A DNA stretch of 61,407 nt, the filler included, from Basidiobolus ranarum (Eukaryota), in NCBI GenBank assembly GCA_040143965.1. It is 19 parts of 19 records of this genome, joined end to end, with 100 filler letters (N's around TTAATTAATTAA, not from the genome) between each part and the next. Parts side by side here need not be neighbours in the genome. Positions count along the whole stretch, not along the records: positions 6,497 to 9,641 come from JASJQH010009572.1; 18 more parts are not named here. One strand, written 5' to 3'. Positions 3,471 to 60,716 of this stretch are shown one piece after another. The position numbers and the translations under genes were made by a program. Numbering within the stretch: position 1 is the first letter of the stretch; each line of letters opens with the position of its first letter. The notes under the pieces are model-generated. The model did not search any database. It was not told the DNA's origin and was given only the letters and a program-made list of their open reading frames with translations.

Positions 3471-6110
3471 GAAACCTTGACTTCTCAGAGTCTGGTAGTG
3501 ATATCCATCAAGTATATCTGTAATACCATCAGCTTTATAGTCAATATTTTAGTATTCAATCAATGATCCATATTTAGGTGATTTCATCAAAAAATTAAGA
3601 TGGGGAATCAATAATATGAAGCCAAACATAAACAATATTTACCTGATTCAGTGATTGCTAATTATGTGCAAACAGTTCATGACTTCAGGTTTTTCAGAGA
3701 ACTGGTGAAACAGTAAGTGTTATGAGTGGACTAATGCATGCCAATGACAAAGAGTCTGTAACAAAACCATCTTCTTCTTCTTGAACTTCTGATATACTAC
3801 CATCAGTACTGAAATAAACAAGGTCAACATCCAGCAGCATGTCCTCAAAGCTGTCTGGACTTACTGGTTTGACAAAACTTTCATTTCTACCTACATCATT
3901 CTGGCTATATAACTGTGGTAACTCCATATTATCTTGACTTTTGATAGTGCCACCAGAGCTTTGACCAATAGCATGGCCAGTGGACTCAGTGGCCCAAACT
4001 AAAGTTGTTTTTGCACAGATATTATAGTTGATATTCACCTGGTTTTGTGCAGCTGGTGGCTTTGTACAGTCACCCTGCTTGTGATTATTGTTTAAGTGAA
4101 GCCTATGGCTTTCATAGAACAAAAATTTTTGACAATAATAGCAGAGCTTCTTTAAATATTTGTGCTGTGGCATGAGAAGGTTATCGTAGAAAAAAGAACA
4201 CCTCCCGTGTTAGGGTGTTATTTTAATTATATTGTGTCAATAACATCAGCTGAATCTGAGACAGTGTCATAGATGAGTCATCAGGAGACTTACAAGATAT
4301 TCCAGATAATGGATGCAATTTTGGTTTATCATAAGCTGTCTCTAAGCAATGTCATTACACAAAATTTACCACCTGAAATTTCCAATGCCATTCAAAAAGT
4401 ATATAAATTCTAAATCAAAATTAGCTTCCAAGCAAAAGCCTGCTGACATAAAAGGAAAATAACCTCCAAGAACAGAGGACTTAATTGATGAGCAGAGCAC
4501 CATAATGATTTGTATGCAATCACAAGTAAAAACTACAAAGCTGCTATAAAGACTATGACAAGCAATAACACCACAATATTGCAATAGATGCAGTGTCAGA
4601 AGCAACTAGTCAACAGTTAGTGAGTCACTCAACAATGATACAAGACCTTCAGAATGCCAAACTTGAGCTACAGCAACATGCTACTCCCTCCATCCATTCC
4701 TATATGGAATTTCAATCAATCCCACACCATACATATGAATGTCATCATGACAATCTAGCAGAGCAGAATATGTGTTGGACCATTAAACCTACACAACATC
4801 CCAAAATTGCTTGGGCATATGAAAGTAGAAATCTTATAGGAAAACTGGCAAACCAAAAGACTCTGAATGTCCAAGTGGCCATCACTTGCTCTCATAATGA
4901 GTGGCTTAACATTTTGGAAACTGGGTGGAATCTTGCCCAAAATCACCATGATCTTAGCCAATCATGAACAACCAAAAACCAGGCATTACTCTGAAGGTTC
5001 TTGACTTATTCCATGTGGCTTATCCTGGGTTTTGCAAGCAAATGGCAATTGGACTAGTATAGGACTATTCATGAAACATCTCATAAATGCTTGCAATTAG
5101 CAACTTGGAAAAGAAAGAAAAGCAGCTTGAGAAATACTCCAGGGGCAGGAAGTCAGTAAACCCTAGGGAAAAGTAAAGGAGCCAGGAAGTTTAGGCTCTA
5201 TTGTCCTACTTATCAGATTCTTTGCACCAATGCAAAGATCTGTACTTCCAGAGTCAGATATATTGGCAAAAAGGTTAATCTCATCATGGCACCAGGTACA
5301 CCAATTGGAAGAGTGCTAAATTTGGAAGTTTATCCAACACCTGGTACCTCTCAACAAGCCAAAACATCAGCAAATAAAACTCATGGCTCTCCACCCTCTA
5401 CTGGTAGCTTTCAAAGTGTTGAAATTAGCCCTAAACTTAAAGGCAAGCATAAAGCCACATAAACACAGCAAAGCACCATCAGTAGTATCTCACTACAAAG
5501 TGATATGAATGTAGTAAAAGAGCTTGAGGAGTATTTTCAAAAGTATGAAGGGGAAAATGCAGTGCAAGTATGCAGAAAGTGGCTTCAGAAGAAGAACATT
5601 CAACTTGATGCTCAGTCTGTTGCTGACCATACCAATATGGGGGAAGAACTTAAGACAGAGTGGCACAATATCATAGGGTATCTGCCAGATAGCTGGAAGA
5701 ATGTTGATTTAGCAACATTAATAGAATGGTGGGCTTGGATGGAAATATTGATATGTAACTTGTGTTGGATATGAGCTAGACCTTGGGTATGAAGAACTCT
5801 ATAAAAATATTCAGGAGAATATATCAAAGAAACTAGGGATTTCAGAGGTGACAAATTAGCATTCAAGTGGTAATAGTGTAAAATTTGAGTTACTTTTTTT
5901 GCACATGTGTTGATCTATAGTTCTCTGAGATTGTAGCCAATCATGTGCAACTATTTTGCAAGATCTTGAAATTTTGCTCCTGAAACTGAAAAAATTGATT
6001 AAAATCAAATCTAACTTGATGGTTTTATGACAGTAGATAAATGGTCAATCCAAAATGGATTAACATTGTGATGGTATTTCTACAATACAAACCTTAAATT
6101 TCTGTTGGGG
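3471..6110. mobile_element. CACTA/EnSpm element: transposase N-terminus (minus, about 3471-4173), divergent ORF2 (plus, about 4540-5800) and terminal repeat ending at 6110
   Basis: The minus strand has a CxxC and acidic region continuing into SPKY...ADGITDILDG, homologous to the Tnp2-type core at 42270-42930. ORF2 fragments (QDLQNAKLELQQH, LEEYFQKYEG...WHNIIGYLPDSWKNVD) recur in several contigs. The end reads CCCCAACAGAAATTT on the minus strand. Confidence 0.8.
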
Positions 6111-6396
6111 AACTTCAAGGACATGCAGCTAGATGTTGACCTTGGTTATTCCAGTACTGATGGTAGTGTATTGGAAGTTGAAGAAGAAGACATTGGTTTT
6201 GTTACTGACTCTTTGTTATTGGCAAACATTAGTCCACTCATAAAACTGACTGTAAAGGAAGCAGCCTTGATTATTGAGGAGTGGAGAGTTGAATCTGATC
6301 TTAGCAACCAGGTGTTTATTGGTTTTCTGTTGCTTTTACCACAGTTGATTGGCAACTGTTGCTTGCCACAGACCTGGTACCAGTCGAAAAACCTTT
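6111..6396 (+). mobile_element. CACTA transposase N-terminal fragment of a second copy (insertion target)
   Basis: EEEDIGFVTDSL...KEAALIIEEWRVES...LPQTWYQ, homologous to 3700-3850 and 38921-39244. Confidence 0.75.
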
Positions 6397-6511
6397 NNNN
6401 NNNNNNNNNNNNNNNNNNNNNNNNNNNNNNNNNNNNNNNNTTAATTAATTAANNNNNNNNNNNNNNNNNNNNNNNNNNNNNNNNNNNNNNNNNNNNATAG
6501 CTTCAACATAC

Positions 6512-7618
6512 TCAAACAATTATCACTGGTTTACCCAAGCAAATCACTAGCTTGACTGGGATTCCGTATTCATTCACTTTTTCTTTGATTTTATCACAGT
6601 AATCTTGATCTCCACGATGAGAAAGGTTGAGGGAATCGAACAAGTCGGACGCACCTTGATCGTCGGAACATGTGTAAGAGTTGCGTAGAATTCCTTCCGA
6701 GACCAATTGATCCTGGATTAGTTTACATCTACTGTCAGACTCTTCTCGGCGGAGTATCCGATTTTCAGAGTGGGGTTCCCTTCTCAAACACACATTTACA
6801 TCTACACTGATGATACCTAGCACCTTCGCATAGGCTGCGACATCTCTGCATCTCATGCGGTCCACATCACTTCTGGAAAGTCTCCTATGGACCTCGAGTC
6901 CTAAGCACACATCAACATTCACATTTATGCCTAATACTTGGAGTCTAGCAACGATGTTTGGACACGTTTGGTTCTCGCTAGGACGGCTGTCGCGGTCACC
7001 GCTATGATCAATGTCATCGAGGTTTATCAGGGCAAAGTCGTTATCATCACCACGAGCTGGGTTTCGGCATATCACACTGCTAACTGGAATCCCGATTTTC
7101 CGGGCCAGTCGAACAAGTTTACCACACGATAGCTTGGTGTAATCCGTGCGCCTAAGTTCATCACCTCCTTTGCCATCGTCGCCGCGAGCTAACCGATGAC
7201 ACACCTCGGGGTGGACCTTAGCTTCGAACAGCCTTAGTCGCTCGACAACTCTTCTGCAATGATGCTCGTAGTCATCTCTCATTGCATCACTCGTTAGAGC
7301 ATTCATTCTCTCTTCTCTTTCGTCTATGGGACAAACTCGAATGTCTACCAAGACACCACGCTCTCGTACTAGATCCACAAGGTCATGGCATCGAAGTTCA
7401 GCAGGATCTAGAAGCTCAATACCCCCGCTGCCAGACTCGTGAGAGTCAGTACATTTCTCGGAAAGAATCTTTGCATTGTAGCGGGAGTTTAGGTGCGACA
7501 CTAGATCCTGGCAGTAGTTTATCCCGACTGGGGGAGTGTATCCTCTCTCCACCAAGTGGCCAGAAGCTAAAAGAGCGCTGGATATGATGAACAATAAATT
7601 GTTGGTAGGAAGCATCAT
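6512..7618 (-). CDS. Secreted Cys-rich repeat protein, copy 1 (368 aa, eight C-x18/19-C modules), family unknown to me
   Basis: Intronless ORF with hydrophobic signal peptide MMLPTNNLLFIISSALLASG. Start moved to the ATG at 7618 because homology with copy 2 ends just upstream. 16 Cys in 8 regularly spaced pairs. TATATATA about 75 nt upstream. Confidence 0.88.
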   Translation of the reverse strand: MMLPTNNLLFIISSALLASGHLVERGYTPPVGINYCQDLVSHLNSRYNAKILSEKCTDSHESGSGGIELLDPAELRCHDLVDLVRERGVLVDIRVCPIDEREERMNALTSDAMRDDYEHHCRRVVERLRLFEAKVHPEVCHRLARGDDGKGGDELRRTDYTKLSCGKLVRLARKIGIPVSSVICRNPARGDDNDFALINLDDIDHSGDRDSRPSENQTCPNIVARLQVLGINVNVDVCLGLEVHRRLSRSDVDRMRCRDVAAYAKVLGIISVDVNVCLRREPHSENRILRREESDSRCKLIQDQLVSEGILRNSYTCSDDQGASDLFDSLNLSHRGDQDYCDKIKEKVNEYGIPVKLVICLGKPVIIV

Positions 7619-7690
7619 GTCAACGTTCAGTCTGATGGAGAAGAGGAAATTGAGTAGAGATGACTGCTTTTCCATCAGTTCAAATTCATC

Positions 7691-7698
7691 TATATATA
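7691..7698 (-). promoter_or_regulatory. Putative TATA box of repeat protein copy 1
   Basis: TATATATA about 75 nt upstream of the ATG at 7618. Confidence 0.5.
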
Positions 7699-8479
7699 CA
7701 AGAGTCACTACTAGCAGATGTTTCTCTTCAGATCAGAATCAGCACTGAATTGTGATCCTATTGTCGTTAGCGCAGTTATCGTATTCTATTGATGCAAGTG
7801 AAAGAGATTTATGCATCGTTACGCAAGTCCTTGCTTCATAGTACTTTTCATAAGTAATTCGGGAGTATTATGACCAGAGTATTTTCGTTAAAAATTTATA
7901 ACTTAATGACTGATTATATTATTAGAGGAGCTAAGATTCTCAGCCAATATCAGTAATAGATTATGAAAGTTCTCCTAAGTATCTTCAAATTTTCGTATTG
8001 AAAACTATCCGATAAATTGAGGCATCGATATGCACCAGCTGCTGGTCGGGTCGGGATATTTGTGATTGAAATCGACAGAATCAAGTCACAATTTGAACCG
8101 GTTAATGAAGTAATCTATTATGGTTCCATGATTGATAATAAAAGTATTTTTGCTTTCCTTGCTCAATTGTAGGCTTAATCGATATCCGCTGTTGGGTTCT
8201 AGAGGGGCATGCTCATTGTAGTCGGGATAGACATTTTATGTCCTTTCCTAATAGGCAAGTAGAATAATTACAAAGTTCATTACATCAACATCAATCGCCA
8301 GTTAAATAATTTGGCGATTGAGAGCCAATATTGGTAAACAACTTTAATCTATGGCAACATTAATCATCCAGTGCAAGATTGTATTTATTTCAGTACTTCT
8401 TGGCAAAAGATAATGCAGAGTTTGATATTATGCGGACATTCAATGGTATTGTGTACAAAGATCTATAGTTTCAAAATAC

Positions 8480-9577
8480 TCAGGCCACTATCACTGGTTT
8501 ACCTAAGCAAGCTACAAGTTTAACTGGGATTCCCTTTTCGTTGAGCATCCTTTTGATTTTATCACAGTACTTTTGATCTCCACGTTCTGAAATTGAATTG
8601 GGGTCGAATGAACTCTGATCTTCTGAACATACAAAAGAGTTACGCAGAATGTCGTTGGAAATCAATTGATCCTCGATTATTTTACATCTACCGTCAGATT
8701 CATCTCGGCGGAGTATCCGATTTTCAGAGTGGGGTTCCCTTCTCAAACACACATTTACATCTACACTGATGATACCTAGCACCTTCGCATAGGCTGCGAC
8801 ATCTCTGCATCTCATGCGGTCCACATCACTTCTGGAAAGTCTCCTATGGACCTCGAGTCCTAAGCACACATCAACATTCACATTTATGCCTAATACTTGG
8901 AGTCTAGCAACGATGTTTGGACACGTTTGGTTCTCGCTAGGACGGCTGTCGCGGTCACCGCTACGATCAATGTCATCGAGGTTTATCAGGGCAAAGTCGT
9001 TATCATCACCACGAGTTGGGTTTCGGCATATCACACTGCTAACTGGAATCCCGATTTTCCGGGCCAGTCGAACAAGTTTACCACACGATAGCTTGGTATA
9101 ATCCGTGCGCCTAAGTTCATCACCTCCTTTGCCATCGTCGCCGCGAGCTAACCGATGACACACCTCGGGGTGGACCTTAGCTTCGAACAGCCTTAGTCGC
9201 TCGACAACTCTTCTGCAATGATGCTCGTAGTCATCTCTCATTGCATCACTCGTTAGAGCATTCATTCTCTCTTCTCTTTCGTCTATAGGACAAACTCGAA
9301 TGTCTACTAAGACACCACGCTCTCGTACTAGATCCACAAGGTCATGGCATCTAAGTTCAGCAGGATCTAAAAGCTCAATACCCCCGCTGCCAGACTCGTG
9401 AGAGCCAGTACATTTCTCGGAAAGAATCCTTGCATTGTAGCGGGAGTTTAGGTGCGACACTAGATCCTGGCAGTAGTTTATCCCGACTGGGGGAGTGTAT
9501 CCTCTCTCCACCAAGTGGCCAGAAGCTAAAAGAGCGCTGGATATGATGAACAATAAATTGTTGGTAAGAAGCATCAT
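8480..9577 (-). CDS. Secreted Cys-rich repeat protein, copy 2 (365 aa), tandem paralogue
   Basis: Near-identical to copy 1 over 8704-9605, diverged over the last about 70 codons, with all 16 Cys kept. AATAAA lies about 90 nt downstream on the minus strand. Confidence 0.88.
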   Translation of the reverse strand: MMLLTNNLLFIISSALLASGHLVERGYTPPVGINYCQDLVSHLNSRYNARILSEKCTGSHESGSGGIELLDPAELRCHDLVDLVRERGVLVDIRVCPIDEREERMNALTSDAMRDDYEHHCRRVVERLRLFEAKVHPEVCHRLARGDDGKGGDELRRTDYTKLSCGKLVRLARKIGIPVSSVICRNPTRGDDNDFALINLDDIDRSGDRDSRPSENQTCPNIVARLQVLGINVNVDVCLGLEVHRRLSRSDVDRMRCRDVAAYAKVLGIISVDVNVCLRREPHSENRILRRDESDGRCKIIEDQLISNDILRNSFVCSEDQSSFDPNSISERGDQKYCDKIKRMLNEKGIPVKLVACLGKPVIVA

Positions 9578-9741
9578 GTCAACGTTCAGTCTGATGGAGG
9601 AGAGGCTACTCAAGAGAAGTATGGAGTAAAGAGAAGCTGTTNNNNNNNNNNNNNNNNNNNNNNNNNNNNNNNNNNNNNNNNNNNNTTAATTAATTAANNN
9701 NNNNNNNNNNNNNNNNNNNNNNNNNNNNNNNNNNNNNNNNN

Positions 9742-11005
9742 CAGCTTGGGCGAGATGGCTACTTACATGCCTATATCCGGTTCGTTCAATGCTTACGGTG
9801 CTCGTTTTGTCGATCCGGCCTTCGGTTTTGCTCTCAGTTGGAATTACTGGTATTCCTGGGCCTTGACTGTTGCTGTGGAGCTTTCCGCTGGCGGCTTAAT
9901 CATGCAGTATTGGCTTCCAAACGTGCCCAGTTGGGTATGGAGTGCTTGCTTGCTAGTAGTCATCGTAGGAATCAATTCGATTTCAGTCAAGGGTTATGGT
10001 GAAGCTGAGTACTGGTTTGCTTTGATTAAGGTAATAACAGTTGTCATCTTCATCATTATCGGTATTTTCGTTGCTGCTGGTGTTCTTGGTAATGTCAATT
10101 ACGGTACCAGAAACTTTACCACAGGAGAGGCACCATTCGTAGGTGGAGCACTTGGTGTGCTGAATGTTTTCCTGGTAGCTGGGTTTTCTTTCATGGGAAC
10201 TGAGTTGGTAGGAGTAGCAGCTGGAGAGAGTGAGAATCCCGAGAAGAACGTACCCAAAGCAATCAAACAAGTGTTCTGGCGTATCTTACTCTTTTATATT
10301 TTCGCTATTATTATCATCAGTTTCTTAGTTCCATACAATGACCCAAGATTGCTTGGCTCTGGAAGTGTTCAAGATGTTTCTATTTCTCCTTTCACTATAG
10401 TCTTTCAACATGCTGGACTTGGACCTGCAGCGGATATCATGAATGCCATTATCTTAATTACAGTCCTTTCAGCAGGCAACTCCGCACTCTATGCTTGTAC
10501 TCGTACCCTTTGGATGATGTCTAATGCAAATATGGCTCCCAGAATATTTGGCAGAGTTAATGCTCGCGGTGTTCCTATGCCTGCTTTGATACTTACTGCT
10601 ATTGTTGGATGTCTCGCTTTCTTGACCTCTCTCTTTGGAGATGGTGTCATCTACCTGTGGCTTTTACGTGCTTCTAGTACCTCTGGCTTCCTTGCATGGG
10701 TTGGTATTGCCATTAGTCATTACCGATTCCGTCGTGCATTCATCGCTCAGGGACATACCTTGGATGAGTTACCATACAGAGCAAGCTTTTATCCTCTTGG
10801 CCCCGTAATTGCTTTGGTATTATGTACTATCGTCCTTGGTGGTCAAGGGTATACCGCATACCATGGTGATGGTGTTTTCGATTGGGGAGAGTGTATTGGT
10901 GGTTACTTGGCCATCATAATTTTCGCCGCCTTATACTTTGGTTATAAGATTGTCAAGAAGACGAAGATCCACAAATTAACTGAATGTGACTTATCTCGTT
11001 ATTAG
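9742..11005 (+). CDS. APC-family amino acid permease, LysP-like (5'-truncated)
   Basis: LGEMATYMPISGSF, WNYWYSWA, GEAEYWFALIKV, GFSFMGTELVGVAAGESENP, VFWRILLFY, SPFTIVF, ISHYRFRRAF. Many TM helices and no introns in the visible part. Confidence 0.93.
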
Positions 11006-30678: not shown

Positions 30679-32325
30679 GAAAAGCATGCTCCTATGTAAC
30701 CTTCAACCAAAATTTTGCCTACTGAAGTGCCCAATACAATTCCAGAAGTTGTAATACCTTTTTCCTAAACCATGAGATCAAATTGGATCAGAAATAGCCC
30801 TCACACAGAATTTTGGAGATCTACAATGGCTGATGAGTACCAGGCTTTGATTGATAGTCAAACTTGGACTTTAACCAACTTACCTGATGTTTAAATATCA
30901 ATTGGCTGCCAATGGGTGTTTAAAGTTAAATCCAACTCTGATGGCAATATAGAAAGGTACAAGGCTAGAATAGTAGCCAAAGGCTCTTCCCAAATACCAG
31001 GAATAGATAATACAGAAACTTTTGCTCCTGTAGCAAAGTTTAATTCAAGTAGATTGATTTTAGCAATTTCAGCTAAGTGTCAGTTTATTATACATCAAAT
31101 GGATGTTAAGACTGCTTTCTTTAATGGTGAATTTGCTGAGGAGATCTATATGGACCAGCCAGATGGATATTTAGACCCAGAAAACCCTAAAAAAATTTGC
31201 CAACTTTTGAAAACACTGTATGGCTTAAAACAATCTCTGAGAGCTTGGAATACAAAGATAGACCCTTTTTTGGAAACACTTGTATTCCAAAAGAGTAATG
31301 CTGACTATAGTATCTACCTCAGGCCTGATAAGAAAACCCAGTTTTATTGGCCTTATATCTAGATGACCTTATAATAGCAACCAATGACTTAAAGACTTTG
31401 GAGAAAACCAAATCCAGCTCATCTGCCAAATTCAAAATGACTGCTCTTGGTGAATTGATGTACTATCTTGGAGTCCAAATTAAAATAGATGGGACTACCA
31501 AAACAATAACTTTAAACCAGTCTAAGTATATCCTAGATATACTAAAGAAGTTTAAAATGGAAGAATATAATCCAATATCAACCCCAATGAAGCCAAATCT
31601 CAACTTGACCAAAAATGGCTCAAATCAGAAGTTTTGTGATTCAAATGAAAGCCAAAAATTTCCTTATCAATCTATAGTAGGTACTTTGATGTACGTCATG
31701 GTTGGAACATGGCCAGATAGTGCATATTCTGTGGGAGCTATGTGCCAATATCTTGAAAATTATGGACCTGTTCAAATCATAGCAGTTAAGTAGATTTTCA
31801 GATATTTGAAAGATACTGTGGATCTGTGCTTAAAATACACATATTTGGGATCAGAGATATTAAAGACAGGAGATCTACAGCAGGATACTTATTTCTTTGT
31901 TCTATTGGAGCCATTTCTTGGAATACAAAGAAACAACCTACCATAGCACTTTCAACAACAGAAGCAGAATATATGGCTGCCTGTGAAGCAACAAAAGAAG
32001 CAATATGGTTAAGAAAACTCATAACAGACTTAGGTTATTATCAAAACTTACCAACTACAATATTTCAAAATAATCAAAGTTGAATCAAATTAGCTAAAAG
32101 TCCCATGTTTCATGATGGAGGCAAGCATATAGATATTGGACATCACTTCATTAGAGAGACTATAGAGCATATGTTGATTTACTTACCTTATTGTTCTACA
32201 AAGGAATGATTGCTGATATATTGACCAAACTATTAGCTAGACAGAAATTTGAGAAATTTAGACCTTTATGAGAATTGGTTTATAAAACTATTTAGTTGAG
32301 GGAGAGTGTTGAAATCAGCATTGCC
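30679..32325 (+). mobile_element. Copia family A pol (RT and RNase H), PPT and 3' LTR start
   Basis: YKARIVAKG, HQMDVKTAF, LYGLKQS, YLDDLII, STTEAEY. GAGGGAGAG precedes TGTTGAAAT at 32307. Confidence 0.95.
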
Positions 32326-43500: not shown

Positions 43501-45005
43501 TGATGAAAGTGTTTAGAGGACTTGGAAATGTTTTGAACAAGATTTTGATTTGTGAATTAGACACTTATATTTTGTTGAATTGAATATGTCCTATTTATAG
43601 TTTACTATAAAATAGAACTATTGGATGGGCTTAGATCATAACAAACATGCCTGCTAAGCTTGGGTGAAAATTTGAGGTGAATTGGAGAAGTTTTGAGATA
43701 ATAGTGAAAATTGGTAAAAGTGATCTAACTGATATTTCTATCAATTAGAGCAATAAACCCACGTTTTTGAATGACAGAATTGAGTGCTAAATAATGAGAT
43801 TATGAACAGACTAACTACTAAATAGTGAGGTGCTATTTACCTAATTTCAACATTCCCAGTCAACTAATTATTTTGTATTTCTCTTAAATCTACCATATAT
43901 CTTAATAATTCATATTGTGCCTTAGCTAAAGATTTGGTTAAGATATCAGCTATCATTTCTTCAGCAGCACAATAGACAAGTTCAATTATATATTTCTCTA
44001 TTGCACCTCTAACAAAATGATGCCTAATATCTATATGTTTTGTTCTAGCATGAAATGAAGGGTTTTTAGCCAATGAAATACAACTTTGATAACCTTCAAA
44101 CACCATAATAGCAGGTTTTTGTATATATTGTAAGTCTGTAAATAACTTCCTTAGCCACATGGCTTCTTGTGTAGTAGCAGAGGCAGCCATATACTCTACC
44201 TCTGTGGTGGCAAGTGCTACAGTTGGTTGCCTCTTACTATTCCAAGTTCTGGCTCCATTACCAAAGAGAACAGTGTACCCAGTTGTTGACCCTCTATCAT
44301 CAAGGTTTCTTCCCCAGTCTGCGTCACTGTCGCCTTCAAAATTTTGTGCATCAGGAGTGGCAGAGTATTCCAAAATTGGATCTACAGTTCCTCTCATATA
44401 CCTGAATATTTGTTTTACTGCATTTTTATGCTCAGATCCTGGATTTTTGAGATATCATCTGACAGTTCACACTGCTACAGCAATTACTGCACATGTTCCA
44501 GCCTTTTTTTGAATTAAACTACCCTCCATGGATTGATATGGGAACTCCTGAATTTGATTCGAGTCTTTTTGGGCCACATTGGACAAAATTTTGCTTAATT
44601 TCACATTGGGATCCGTGGGTGTTAATACAGGCTTGCTATTCTCCATGTTGAAGCTTTTTAGGATCTCTAGGATGTATCTAGACTGATTCAATATGATTTT
44701 CTGATTGGGTTTATCTCTCTTGATTTAGATTCCCAGGAAATAACTTAATTCACCCATATCAGTCTTCTAAAATTGGTTTAATAAGCGGCATTTTGTCTGA
44801 TTTGGTGCTTCTAGATCATTTGTGGCTATGATCAAATCATCCACATATAGTGCCAAGAGAAGAATCCTATTTCTGGTTGTTTGAGGTAAATATCGTGATC
44901 TGCTGTGCATTTTTGGAATTCCAGTGATTCCAAATACATATCTTTCTTGTTGTACCATGCCCTGGGTGCTTGCTTGAGTCCATATAGCAATTTTTGCAGT
45001 TTACA
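43501..45005 (-). mobile_element. Copia family B RT and RNase H with 3' LTR (43501-43852)
   Basis: ALYVDDLIIA, SDADWG--LDDRGSTTGY, FHARTKHIDIRHHFVR, MIADILTKSL, then a purine tract and TGTTGAAATTAGG. Confidence 0.93.
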
Positions 45006-58418: not shown

Positions 58419-59681
58419 TTTAGCTTCTATTTTTTAGTTCACCATCGAAAGTTCAACGGGGAATTTATATTTATATTGCATCTTTTCCAACCTGAGATAA
58501 CAGATTCTAAAAGAGGCACGTCAAGCAGCGTCATGCTTATGAAGATTTACATTACAGGAAGTTGGTGTTGAATTGTCTCGGCAATTTCGGGTAATACAAA
58601 CATTCATATCCAGTTATTTTCGCAATTAATCTCGAGATTATCAGGGGGTTTTACAACTTATCTATGTGTTTCACGATGTCACATTAGTCATTAAATATTC
58701 CTACCTCTATTGAGCGTGTTTCGAAATCAGCTTTTTTTTGTTGATGGATTTCAGTCCGCTTTTAGAATATTCTCAGTAGTATATATAGTTGGCCGCATAA
58801 ATGATTATCACCTGAAGATTATCAGGATTGGTTTTGTTTTTCATTGTGTTTTCCTTACTTGCCATAACATTCGAATTGGGCGGCTTCACAGTGTTTACCA
58901 AAAGTTTAATTATTGGAAGCACAAACAACACCTGAAATATAGACAGAATTCCCACATCCGGCAAAACTACTCATCTATATCTGGTTTGGAGCAGGAGAAC
59001 TATTCGTCACTCTGCACTGAATCTGTTCGCCAAATCTGCTTGGTGGAATGGTTAATTTCATAAATATTTGTGGCGTCACCGAAAATATTCCGTGTCGTAG
59101 CATACCATCAACCCGAAAATTGTTAGATCCGAGGAATGGGAAGCGTAGTATTGAATTGTCCATGTTGCTCCCGTGCTCTGTTCGCCATTCTGAAAGCCAC
59201 CCGTGTTAAGAAAAGCCACCGGTAAAATCTTGGGGGTTCTTGTCAGCGAATGATAGAGAGAACTATCACCGAGATCGTGCGACAATTCCTTGGTATTGCC
59301 ATTACTGAGAATTATTAGATCGTTCTCTCACTTCATGTAGCCTTGATCTGAGGTAGCCCATTGCGTCCCATTTTGTCGCGGAGTTCATCAAAAGGACTGT
59401 CAAATGCCTGGGTAGGGTAACTTCATGTGTACCCCATGTAGGGTTAGGGTTACCTAATGTAGGACTGATGTATTCAACTCGCCATTTGCCTTCACATGAT
59501 GATGTCGTTTTGACTGTCACAATGAAGCCATTGATGTGGGCAGCAATGATATGGAGTGACTCAATTGGCCTAAAGGGTCCATCTTCTCTTTAAATCATTT
59601 TTCTTCCTTTTTTTCACTCCTCCTGTATTCACACACTCCACCTTTGCCTCCCTCTCCTCCTTCTCACCTTCTACTTTCAGA

Positions 59682-60716
59682 ATGACAACCTCGTCGACAT
59701 CAACTTATCCATTCTACCAAATCGACGTCTTCACCGACAAGGGATTCCTCGGCAACCCCCTCGCCGTCATTGTCGCATCCGCCCCTGCCCTGCCCATTCC
59801 CACCGACCAGCAGATGCAAAAAATCGCGAACTGGACAAATCTCTCCGAGACCACCTTCCTCCTCCCCCCTACCGACCCCACCAAGGCCGATTACAAAGTC
59901 AGGATCTTTACGCCGAATATCGAGCTCCCCTTTGCAGGTCACCCTACCATCGGCACCTGTCGTGCGTTTCTGGAGCATACTCAGTCGAAAAAGAAGAACG
60001 TCGTTCAGGAGTGTGAGGTGGGGCTTGTGGAACTGCAGGTTGCTGATAGTGGGTCGATTGCCTTTACTGCGCCACCGCTTCGTAAGACAGGACCGGTGGA
60101 GGAAGAGACTGTGAAGATTGTCTGTGAGGCCATGGGAATTGTGAGGGAGGATGTCTTGGATACACAGTGGTTGGTCAATGGGCCTCACTGGTTTGCGTTA
60201 TTGTTAAAGGATGCCGAGACGGTACTGAAGGCGAGCCGCATTCCCACGTTGAAATCGAAGCAGTTCGAGTTTGGAATCGTGGGGCAGTACCCTAAAGGTG
60301 CTGCAGGGCAAGACAAGGAGGATGGTAGTGCTCCATTCTTTGAGATCCGAGCCTTCCCTCATGTGGATCTGATCGACGAGGATCCCGTCTGCGGTTCTTT
60401 CAAGTAAGTACTGAGGGAATCTTGTCTCCTTTATTTTTACTTTTGGTGGCGTAAGCATTGAGACCAGTGAGCTGACTTTTATATTTATCTTTTTCTGCTC
60501 ACTTTTTGTATAACTAGTGCTGGAGTCGCTCAATGGCTTATCGGCAATGGCGTGGCACCTGCGAGCTATGTGGCATCTCAAGGGCTAGCGATGGGAAGAC
60601 GCGGTCGTATTGTTGTGCACCGCGATGACTCGGACCTGTCGTTAGACGTATCCAAGCGTTCTGTCTGGGTCGGTGGTCAGACCGTCATTTGTATCCAGGG
60701 CACTATCCAAGTCTAA
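59682..60716 (+). CDS. PhzF/PhzC-family epimerase-like protein, two exons (59682-60403, 60518-60716)
   Basis: [46 protein letters not shown]. Removing the GTAAGT...TAG intron gives [18 protein letters not shown]...SYVASQG-AMGRRGR...VWVGG. Confidence 0.92.

Follow-up and report, generated by a model that had tools for sequence, protein, structure and literature searches.

What kind of protein carries 16 cysteines in eight evenly built modules, and what might it do outside the cell? The question is raised by a 3,145-bp contig of the fungus Basidiobolus ranarum (assembly GCA_040143965.1, record JASJQH010009572.1), which occupies positions 6497-9641 of the 61,407-nucleotide stretch analyzed here (the window, to which all positions refer). 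The window consists of unplaced contigs of ~3.1 kb strung together with N spacers, and for this reason the DNA beyond 6497-9641 is uninformative as a neighbourhood. The contig carries two open reading frames (ORFs), copy A (6512..7618) and copy B (8480..9577), both on the minus strand and both intact. Each is a single-exon ORF, encoding 368 amino acids (aa) in copy A (counted from the ATG at 7618) and 365 aa in copy B. With four domains each, the two products probably belong to a family of secreted structural proteins that is specific to Basidiobolus. We have moderate confidence in the best reading, a family that assembles on surfaces as a coat or adhesive and parallels hydrophobins and chaplins in function without belonging to either group.

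Each copy contains exactly 16 Cys residues, which form eight modules, six of the C-x18-C and two of the C-x19-C type. This had been noticed in an earlier inspection of the same DNA (the original prediction) and was borne out, the modules quoted there being identical to those of copy A. Among 100,000 shuffled versions of copy B, never more than four of the eight pairs fell at module spacing, and four did so in 12 shuffles. The consensus proposed earlier (starting C-xx-[LIV]V) is strictly matched by modules 2, 4 and 5 of each copy and fails in the other five of the eight. The proteins had also been described as secreted, and they do look secreted on the hydropathy and conservation of the N-terminus: the best 9-residue hydropathy mean of the N-terminal hydrophobic stretch is 2.6, and the stretch is conserved in relatives. 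Putative signal peptides were placed by the same two features at 9521..9577 (minus strand, ~19 aa) in copy B and at 7562..7618 (minus strand) in copy A.

The repeat unit had been taken to be the single module, but the pair of modules proved to be the better description. A domain is ~60 aa long, has four Cys and comprises two similar modules (type A followed by type B) separated by a linker of mostly 17-20 aa, whereas the spacers between module pairs range from 8 to more than 150 aa. Complete family proteins are nearly always even-numbered in modules (the exception is one B. meristosporus protein with seven), and the nearest relatives of copies A and B have six, that is, two fewer. The four Cys of the domain are invariant in alignments of 40 and of 56 domains. 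As judged from these sequence patterns, the real unit is the module pair, so copies A and B hold four predicted domains each. In copy B, which ends in a short C-terminal strand (8483-8506, hydrophobic), all domains lie on the minus strand: domain 1 (modules 1-2; 9290..9472) is the conserved N-terminal domain of the subfamily, domain 2 (modules 3-4; 9026..9217) is divergent with helix-like first halves, domain 3 (modules 5-6; 8747..8923) is the canonical family domain that retrieves most genome matches, and domain 4 (modules 7-8; 8507..8686), which precedes the strand, is again divergent. The same module pairs of copy A, also on the minus strand, lie at 7331..7513, 7067..7258, 6788..6964 (canonical) and 6539..6727, followed by the C-terminal strand at 6515-6538.

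The original prediction favoured a precursor that is processed by Kex2 and releases single disulfide-looped peptides of repellent-like or membrane-active character. Each copy does have four RR sites in its linkers, and module 6 is flanked by dibasic sites on both sides; it is the only module so flanked. However, these sites are confined to three of the seven linkers, KR is found in none of the linkers, and the number observed equals that in linker shuffles (4 versus 3.6-4.1 expected, p 0.5-0.6). Dibasic pairs (RR, RK and KR) are present within modules 3, 4 and 8 as well. The family as a whole gives the same picture, with KR or RR in 24 of 205 distinct short linkers against 28-30 expected. The closest eight-module paralogue lacks the linker sites of copies A and B, a 14-module orthologous array has one in 1 of its 13 linkers, and the sites are not kept in orthologues. 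Moreover, at least ten family genes encode single-domain proteins (~110 aa) with an inter-module linker devoid of dibasic sites. In some subfamilies KR occurs once, behind either the signal peptide or the first domain, so some trimming between domains may occur.

Basidiobolus is rich in Kex2-processed repeat proteins (KEPs), 43 of which are listed for B. meristosporus in the consulted part of PMC7329392 (Table S2), and this speaks for a precursor; yet none of the 27 B. meristosporus family accessions is among those 43, two further members lying outside the comparison. The definition given in the same source combines a signal peptide for the endoplasmic reticulum with at least three repeats, each located between KR, KK, RK or RR sites. 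By that published definition copies A and B, with module 6 alone individually flanked and no enrichment of sites, are not KEPs as far as their predicted features go. Release of single peptides is an unlikely function of these proteins, and we expect copies A and B to remain largely whole, with one or two inter-domain cuts possible.

How might a module fold? It had been read as a helix, a Gly turn and a strand. Mean hydropathy was calculated for 153 modules, in the selection of which positions 4, 11 and 13 had been used. Positions 4, 5, 8, 10, 11, 13, 15, 19 and 21 had high values and positions 2, 3, 7, 9, 14, 16 and 18 low ones; positions 6 and 17, both rich in Ala, lay in between, and Gly occupied position 12 in 136 of the 153 modules. 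Hydropathy alternates strictly across positions 13-21 and 6-10; the second half of the module shows strand-like alternation, and the first half shows helix and strand periodicity together. If the module were a hairpin with its turn at Leu-Gly, the paired positions should add up to 23 (i+j=23). A set of 205 modules (effective number 85), thinned by identity without the use of a tree, was scored for covariation at 154 pairs of positions. The two highest-scoring pairs both fall on the hairpin register chosen beforehand. They are 5:18 (z 4.9), in which Val and a polar residue trade places, and 6:17 (z 2.9), with compensating small residues. Register 23 had a mean z of 1.07, and registers 22, 24 and 25 were negative. 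Of 20 subsamples per identity level, register 23 came out best in 20 at 80%, in 19 at 70% and in 13 at 60%. An antiparallel fold-back around the Leu-Gly turn, with a hydrophobic face, is supported by these patterns, and the canonical family module would fit a beta-hairpin at least as well as the helix-Gly-strand arrangement. The latter still suits the divergent modules of copies A and B and one low-confidence model.

Several observations weigh against a hairpin. The predicted charge or salt-bridge pair 7:16 did not covary in the 205 modules (z -1.3), the 5:18 swap may reflect few evolutionary events, related modules having only been thinned, and a similar antiparallel trend would arise from a helix packed against a strand. 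The two AlphaFold models are both of low confidence (predicted local distance difference test, pLDDT, 56 and 54; predicted template modelling score, pTM, 0.35) and disagree on helix versus hairpin: domain 3 of the copies was modelled as helical (pLDDT 56), and a small family member as five strands forming two hairpins and a C-terminal strand (pLDDT 54). In copies A and B themselves the canonical pattern is partly lost in six of the eight modules, most of them with charged residues at positions 6 and/or 10; most modules other than 5 and 6 read better as a helix followed by a strand. Both copies are also less amphipathic than the family core, with a net charge near neutral. Fold searches with the low-confidence model of the small member gave no Foldseek match at E 0.001, and the best Z was 4.6 among 48,161 chains, an uninformative outcome.

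The distribution of the domain was examined with a 40-domain profile run against 1.84 billion protein representatives. The 37 matches were reduced to 34 after removal of three that lack the Cys pattern and were considered spurious (P0031, fish golgin-like; P0033 and P0037, unnamed repeats). The source was checked for 22 of the 34, all of which came from B. ranarum or B. meristosporus, and most of the other 12 read like ORFs of the present B. ranarum genome. Word-based protein searches returned 3, 17 and 18 matches, Basidiobolus without exception. Among the true matches with a checked source, the family is restricted to Basidiobolus. Horizontal transfer was dismissed, as this protein-level search yielded no prokaryotic match among the 1.84 billion representatives. 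The exact sequences of copies A and B are absent from a collection of 15 billion proteins, and a metagenome scan produced 46 pattern matches, none of which was confirmed. Genus-restricted families of Cys-rich secreted proteins are common among fungi.

The view that the proteins match no described family also held. No Pfam family reached the cut-off for the two window proteins, 40 domains and 12 relatives; below it were weak glutaredoxin-type matches (E about 0.08) to module 8 only. The PDB gave no match by sequence at E 5, and the ESM Atlas no usable match for copy B or a small member, a result that shows neither absence nor novelty. No account of the family was found in searches of the mostly open-access literature naming Basidiobolus; the passages retrieved from PMC9391592 and PMC8588673 contain no description of it. 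Within the databases and literature searched, both the domain and the family appear undescribed.

In its own genome, the family is large. A search with copy B produced 105 matches at E up to 1, mostly via modules 5-6, and further searches with other members raised the number of contigs with the domain to at least 70 (E about 0.001), a figure that differs from a gene count given the fragmented assembly and possible haplotype copies. Profiles matched 99 distinct ORF segments in the fetched loci, some of which are truncated forms of the same gene, while one or two seem spurious; the module is present in 87, and 57 start with Met and a hydrophobic stretch. Three layouts were distinguished. The first comprises proteins of 100-119 aa (e.g. 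108 aa), found in both species, in which a signal peptide and a short strand precede the two modules and a further strand forms the C-terminus. The second consists of arrays of 6, 8, 10, 14 or 16 modules, copies A and B among them. In the third, one or two module pairs are combined with long tails that, like the spacers, are rich in Gly, Asn, Pro, Ser, His or Lys.

CxxC within a Pro-rich tail was seen in 8 of the 99 segments and at least four Gly-Tyr or Tyr-Gly pairs in 13. Tails of the Gly-Tyr-rich and CxxC types resemble cross-linked wall and cuticle proteins. Three members with one domain (G000:C515, L063; C7885, L065; C2240, L066) have an extra Cys in module B and tails of up to 600 aa made of His/Lys/Gly-rich or Gly-Gly-Tyr repeats, which makes them candidates for metal- or tyrosine-cross-linked matrix proteins. 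Three subfamilies (G000:C1454, L023; C10442, L036; C2414, L025) have nine Cys in the mature protein, and the odd ninth could form inter-chain bonds. Anchoring by glycosylphosphatidylinositol was set aside, with an uncharged hydrophobic terminal 15-mer in 1 of the 99 segments, many of which are cut by contig ends.

The coat or adhesive role is proposed because the family is large and modular, bears low-complexity tails, alternates in hydropathy, covaries at 5:18 and 6:17, has a small member with a low-confidence two-hairpin model, and shows no catalytic or binding domain in the 14 full-length members scanned against Pfam. The module would fold back antiparallel at the Leu-Gly turn, so that residues 4, 6, 8 and 10 together with 13, 15, 17 and 19 make up one hydrophobic face, and its two Cys would staple it by a within-module disulfide. 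After secretion, domains may pack by their hydrophobic faces and strand edges, both mutually and onto hydrophobic interfaces; the resulting coat or adhesive matrix would lie on aerial hyphae, on spores or on the sticky tips of capilliconidia. Within it, small members would be the monomers and arrays such as copies A and B the multivalent cross-linkers, with tailed members contributing Gly/Pro/His/Tyr-rich, Cys-bearing spacers to the matrix. According to the available passages of PMC10964425, Basidiobolus produces forcibly discharged conidia as well as capilliconidia with adhesive tips. A bolder version, in which Basidiobolus independently invented a modular surface-assembly system, is speculative and rather doubtful: a stapled hairpin domain would convert from a soluble helical form to a beta-sheet film, polymerize at interfaces, recruit dozens of low-complexity tails and possibly serve as the glue of capilliconidia on insects.

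A rival reading is a soluble binding or effector domain: the four-Cys unit would be a protease-resistant fold with lipids, membranes, glycans or microbial surfaces as its targets, be it in the amphibian gut, in litter or on insects, with arrays providing avidity and tails acting as tethers. Secreted families that are large, diverging and confined to one genus are typical of effectors, the divergent modules keep a helix-type stripe at positions 4, 8 and 11, and one of the models is helical. In addition, the module end (hydrophobic-Cys-Leu-Gly) and the amphipathic character recall saposin-like proteins. The saposin SapB domain is helical and has six Cys, whereas the Basidiobolus domain has four evenly spaced ones and a strand-like alternation in the second half of the module; Pfam gave no SapB match for the window proteins, 40 domains and 12 relatives, and no lectin or other family reached the cut-off either. 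The residues of the polar face are conserved in type, not hypervariable, and the long structural-type tails fit a matrix better. We regard a binding or effector role as a possibility of some weight, though a minor one.

Tandem small disulfide repeat domains are also a common design of protease inhibitors, and passage through the gut is part of the life cycle as described in the consulted portion of PMC10964425; inhibitors or storage proteins shielding spores during that passage were therefore considered. Pfam returned no inhibitor family, the modules show no apparent reactive-site loop, whether conserved or hypervariable, and such a function seems very improbable.

If the family does form a surface coat or adhesive, its closest counterparts in mode of action would include the chaplins of Streptomyces (PF03777). 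In the parts of the sources available, these are described as secreted and hydrophobic with short one-domain and long two-domain forms (PMC4929970), and as having two Cys able to form an intramolecular disulfide (PMC5618249). The Basidiobolus family is alike in its predicted secretion, hydrophobicity, short and long forms and the proposed mode of action, but differs in being fungal, in having four Cys per domain, in its arrays of up to eight domains and in its diverse low-complexity tails. PF03777 matched none of the window proteins, 40 domains and 12 relatives; a search of the genome with it also gave no match, yet the controls were below the cut-off as well.

Fungal hydrophobins (PF01185, PF06766) offer a further parallel, being small, secreted, Cys-stapled amphipathic proteins of multigene families, with a conserved eight-Cys pattern and four disulfides according to the main text of bioRxiv 2022.08.19.504535. 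In contrast, the Basidiobolus domains have four evenly spaced Cys and no adjacent Cys pairs, and copies A and B are 365-368 aa long. Neither Pfam model matched the two window proteins, 40 domains and 12 relatives, and two Pfam hydrophobin searches of the B. ranarum genome returned no match, nor did any positive control score. Four B. meristosporus members carry the UniRef label 'Hydrophobin' (hypothetical at NCBI), a label countered in all four by four Cys per domain and no Pfam hydrophobin match. The Rep1 repellents of Ustilago maydis, which form amphipathic amyloid fibrils on aerial hyphae (available text of PMC3133707), share with KEPs and the present family amphipathic repeats behind a signal peptide, which is putative in the latter; the Basidiobolus repeats differ in being presumably Cys-stapled, paired and not each flanked by dibasic sites.

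Copies A and B also bear on the history of the locus and on its public annotation. A tract of copy A (6749..7646, minus strand) is near-identical to 8708-9605 of copy B by base comparison: the first 870 coding bases differ at 10 sites, in contrast to two stretches further 3' in which 20 and 23 bases, respectively, out of 90 are different. They may be older duplicates recently homogenized over most of their length by gene conversion or unequal crossing-over, and the tandem cluster probably has further copies beyond these two. An assembly artefact was ruled out by the differences themselves (10 of 870 bases 5', about a quarter 3'), and is also countered by adjacent family genes on one B. meristosporus contig. 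An upstream in-frame ATG at 7675 would extend copy A to 387 aa. The start is most likely at 7618, where it lines up with the starts of copy B and all relatives, and the stretch 7618-7675 resembles a pyrimidine tract ending in CAG, a putative acceptor of an intron in the 5' untranslated region. The public model K7432_016416 (KAK9679095.1) has copy B residues at 4, 50 and 58 and copy A residues at 188, 205, 292 and beyond. It is a chimera in which the 5' part comes from copy B and the 3' part from copy A; such a fusion could be explained by three in-register GT..AG junctions, and, because both ORFs are intact, it is probably an annotation artefact. At the edge of another contig (G000:C9548:1-90), a further C-terminal end is present, 77% identical to copy B residues 335-364.

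Basidiobolus is a gut symbiont of amphibians and reptiles (frog gut) and also causes opportunistic infections. The family, being genus-restricted and multi-copy, is a candidate diagnostic marker. The coating and gluing of aerial spores outside Dikarya are poorly known: in its main text, which does not name Basidiobolus, a survey of 20 hydrophobin-positive proteomes reports candidates in one of six Zoopagomycota and one of five Mucoromycota genomes (bioRxiv 2022.08.19.504535). The family supplies named, small and readily expressed candidates for a role as spore coat or glue and, should it assemble as proposed, a new protein surfactant or adhesive scaffold. One public gene model, a chimera, is put right as well, as are four misleading 'Hydrophobin' labels.

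Other contigs of the window carry further features. An amino-acid permease gene (PF00324, E 3e-122) at 9755-11005 (plus strand), unrelated to copies A and B, is open to the edge of its contig. Fragments at 922-1635, 30895-31790 and 43867-44454 resemble Ty1/copia reverse transcriptase and RNase H. Short similar inverted segments of one contig, at 3694-4173 (minus strand) and 6123-6396 (plus strand), are probably a degenerate repeat. Finally, an ORF at 59574-60404 (plus strand), the start of which we take to resemble a PhzF-family phenazine-biosynthesis epimerase, lies on a contig of higher GC content and is possibly a bacterial-type gene.

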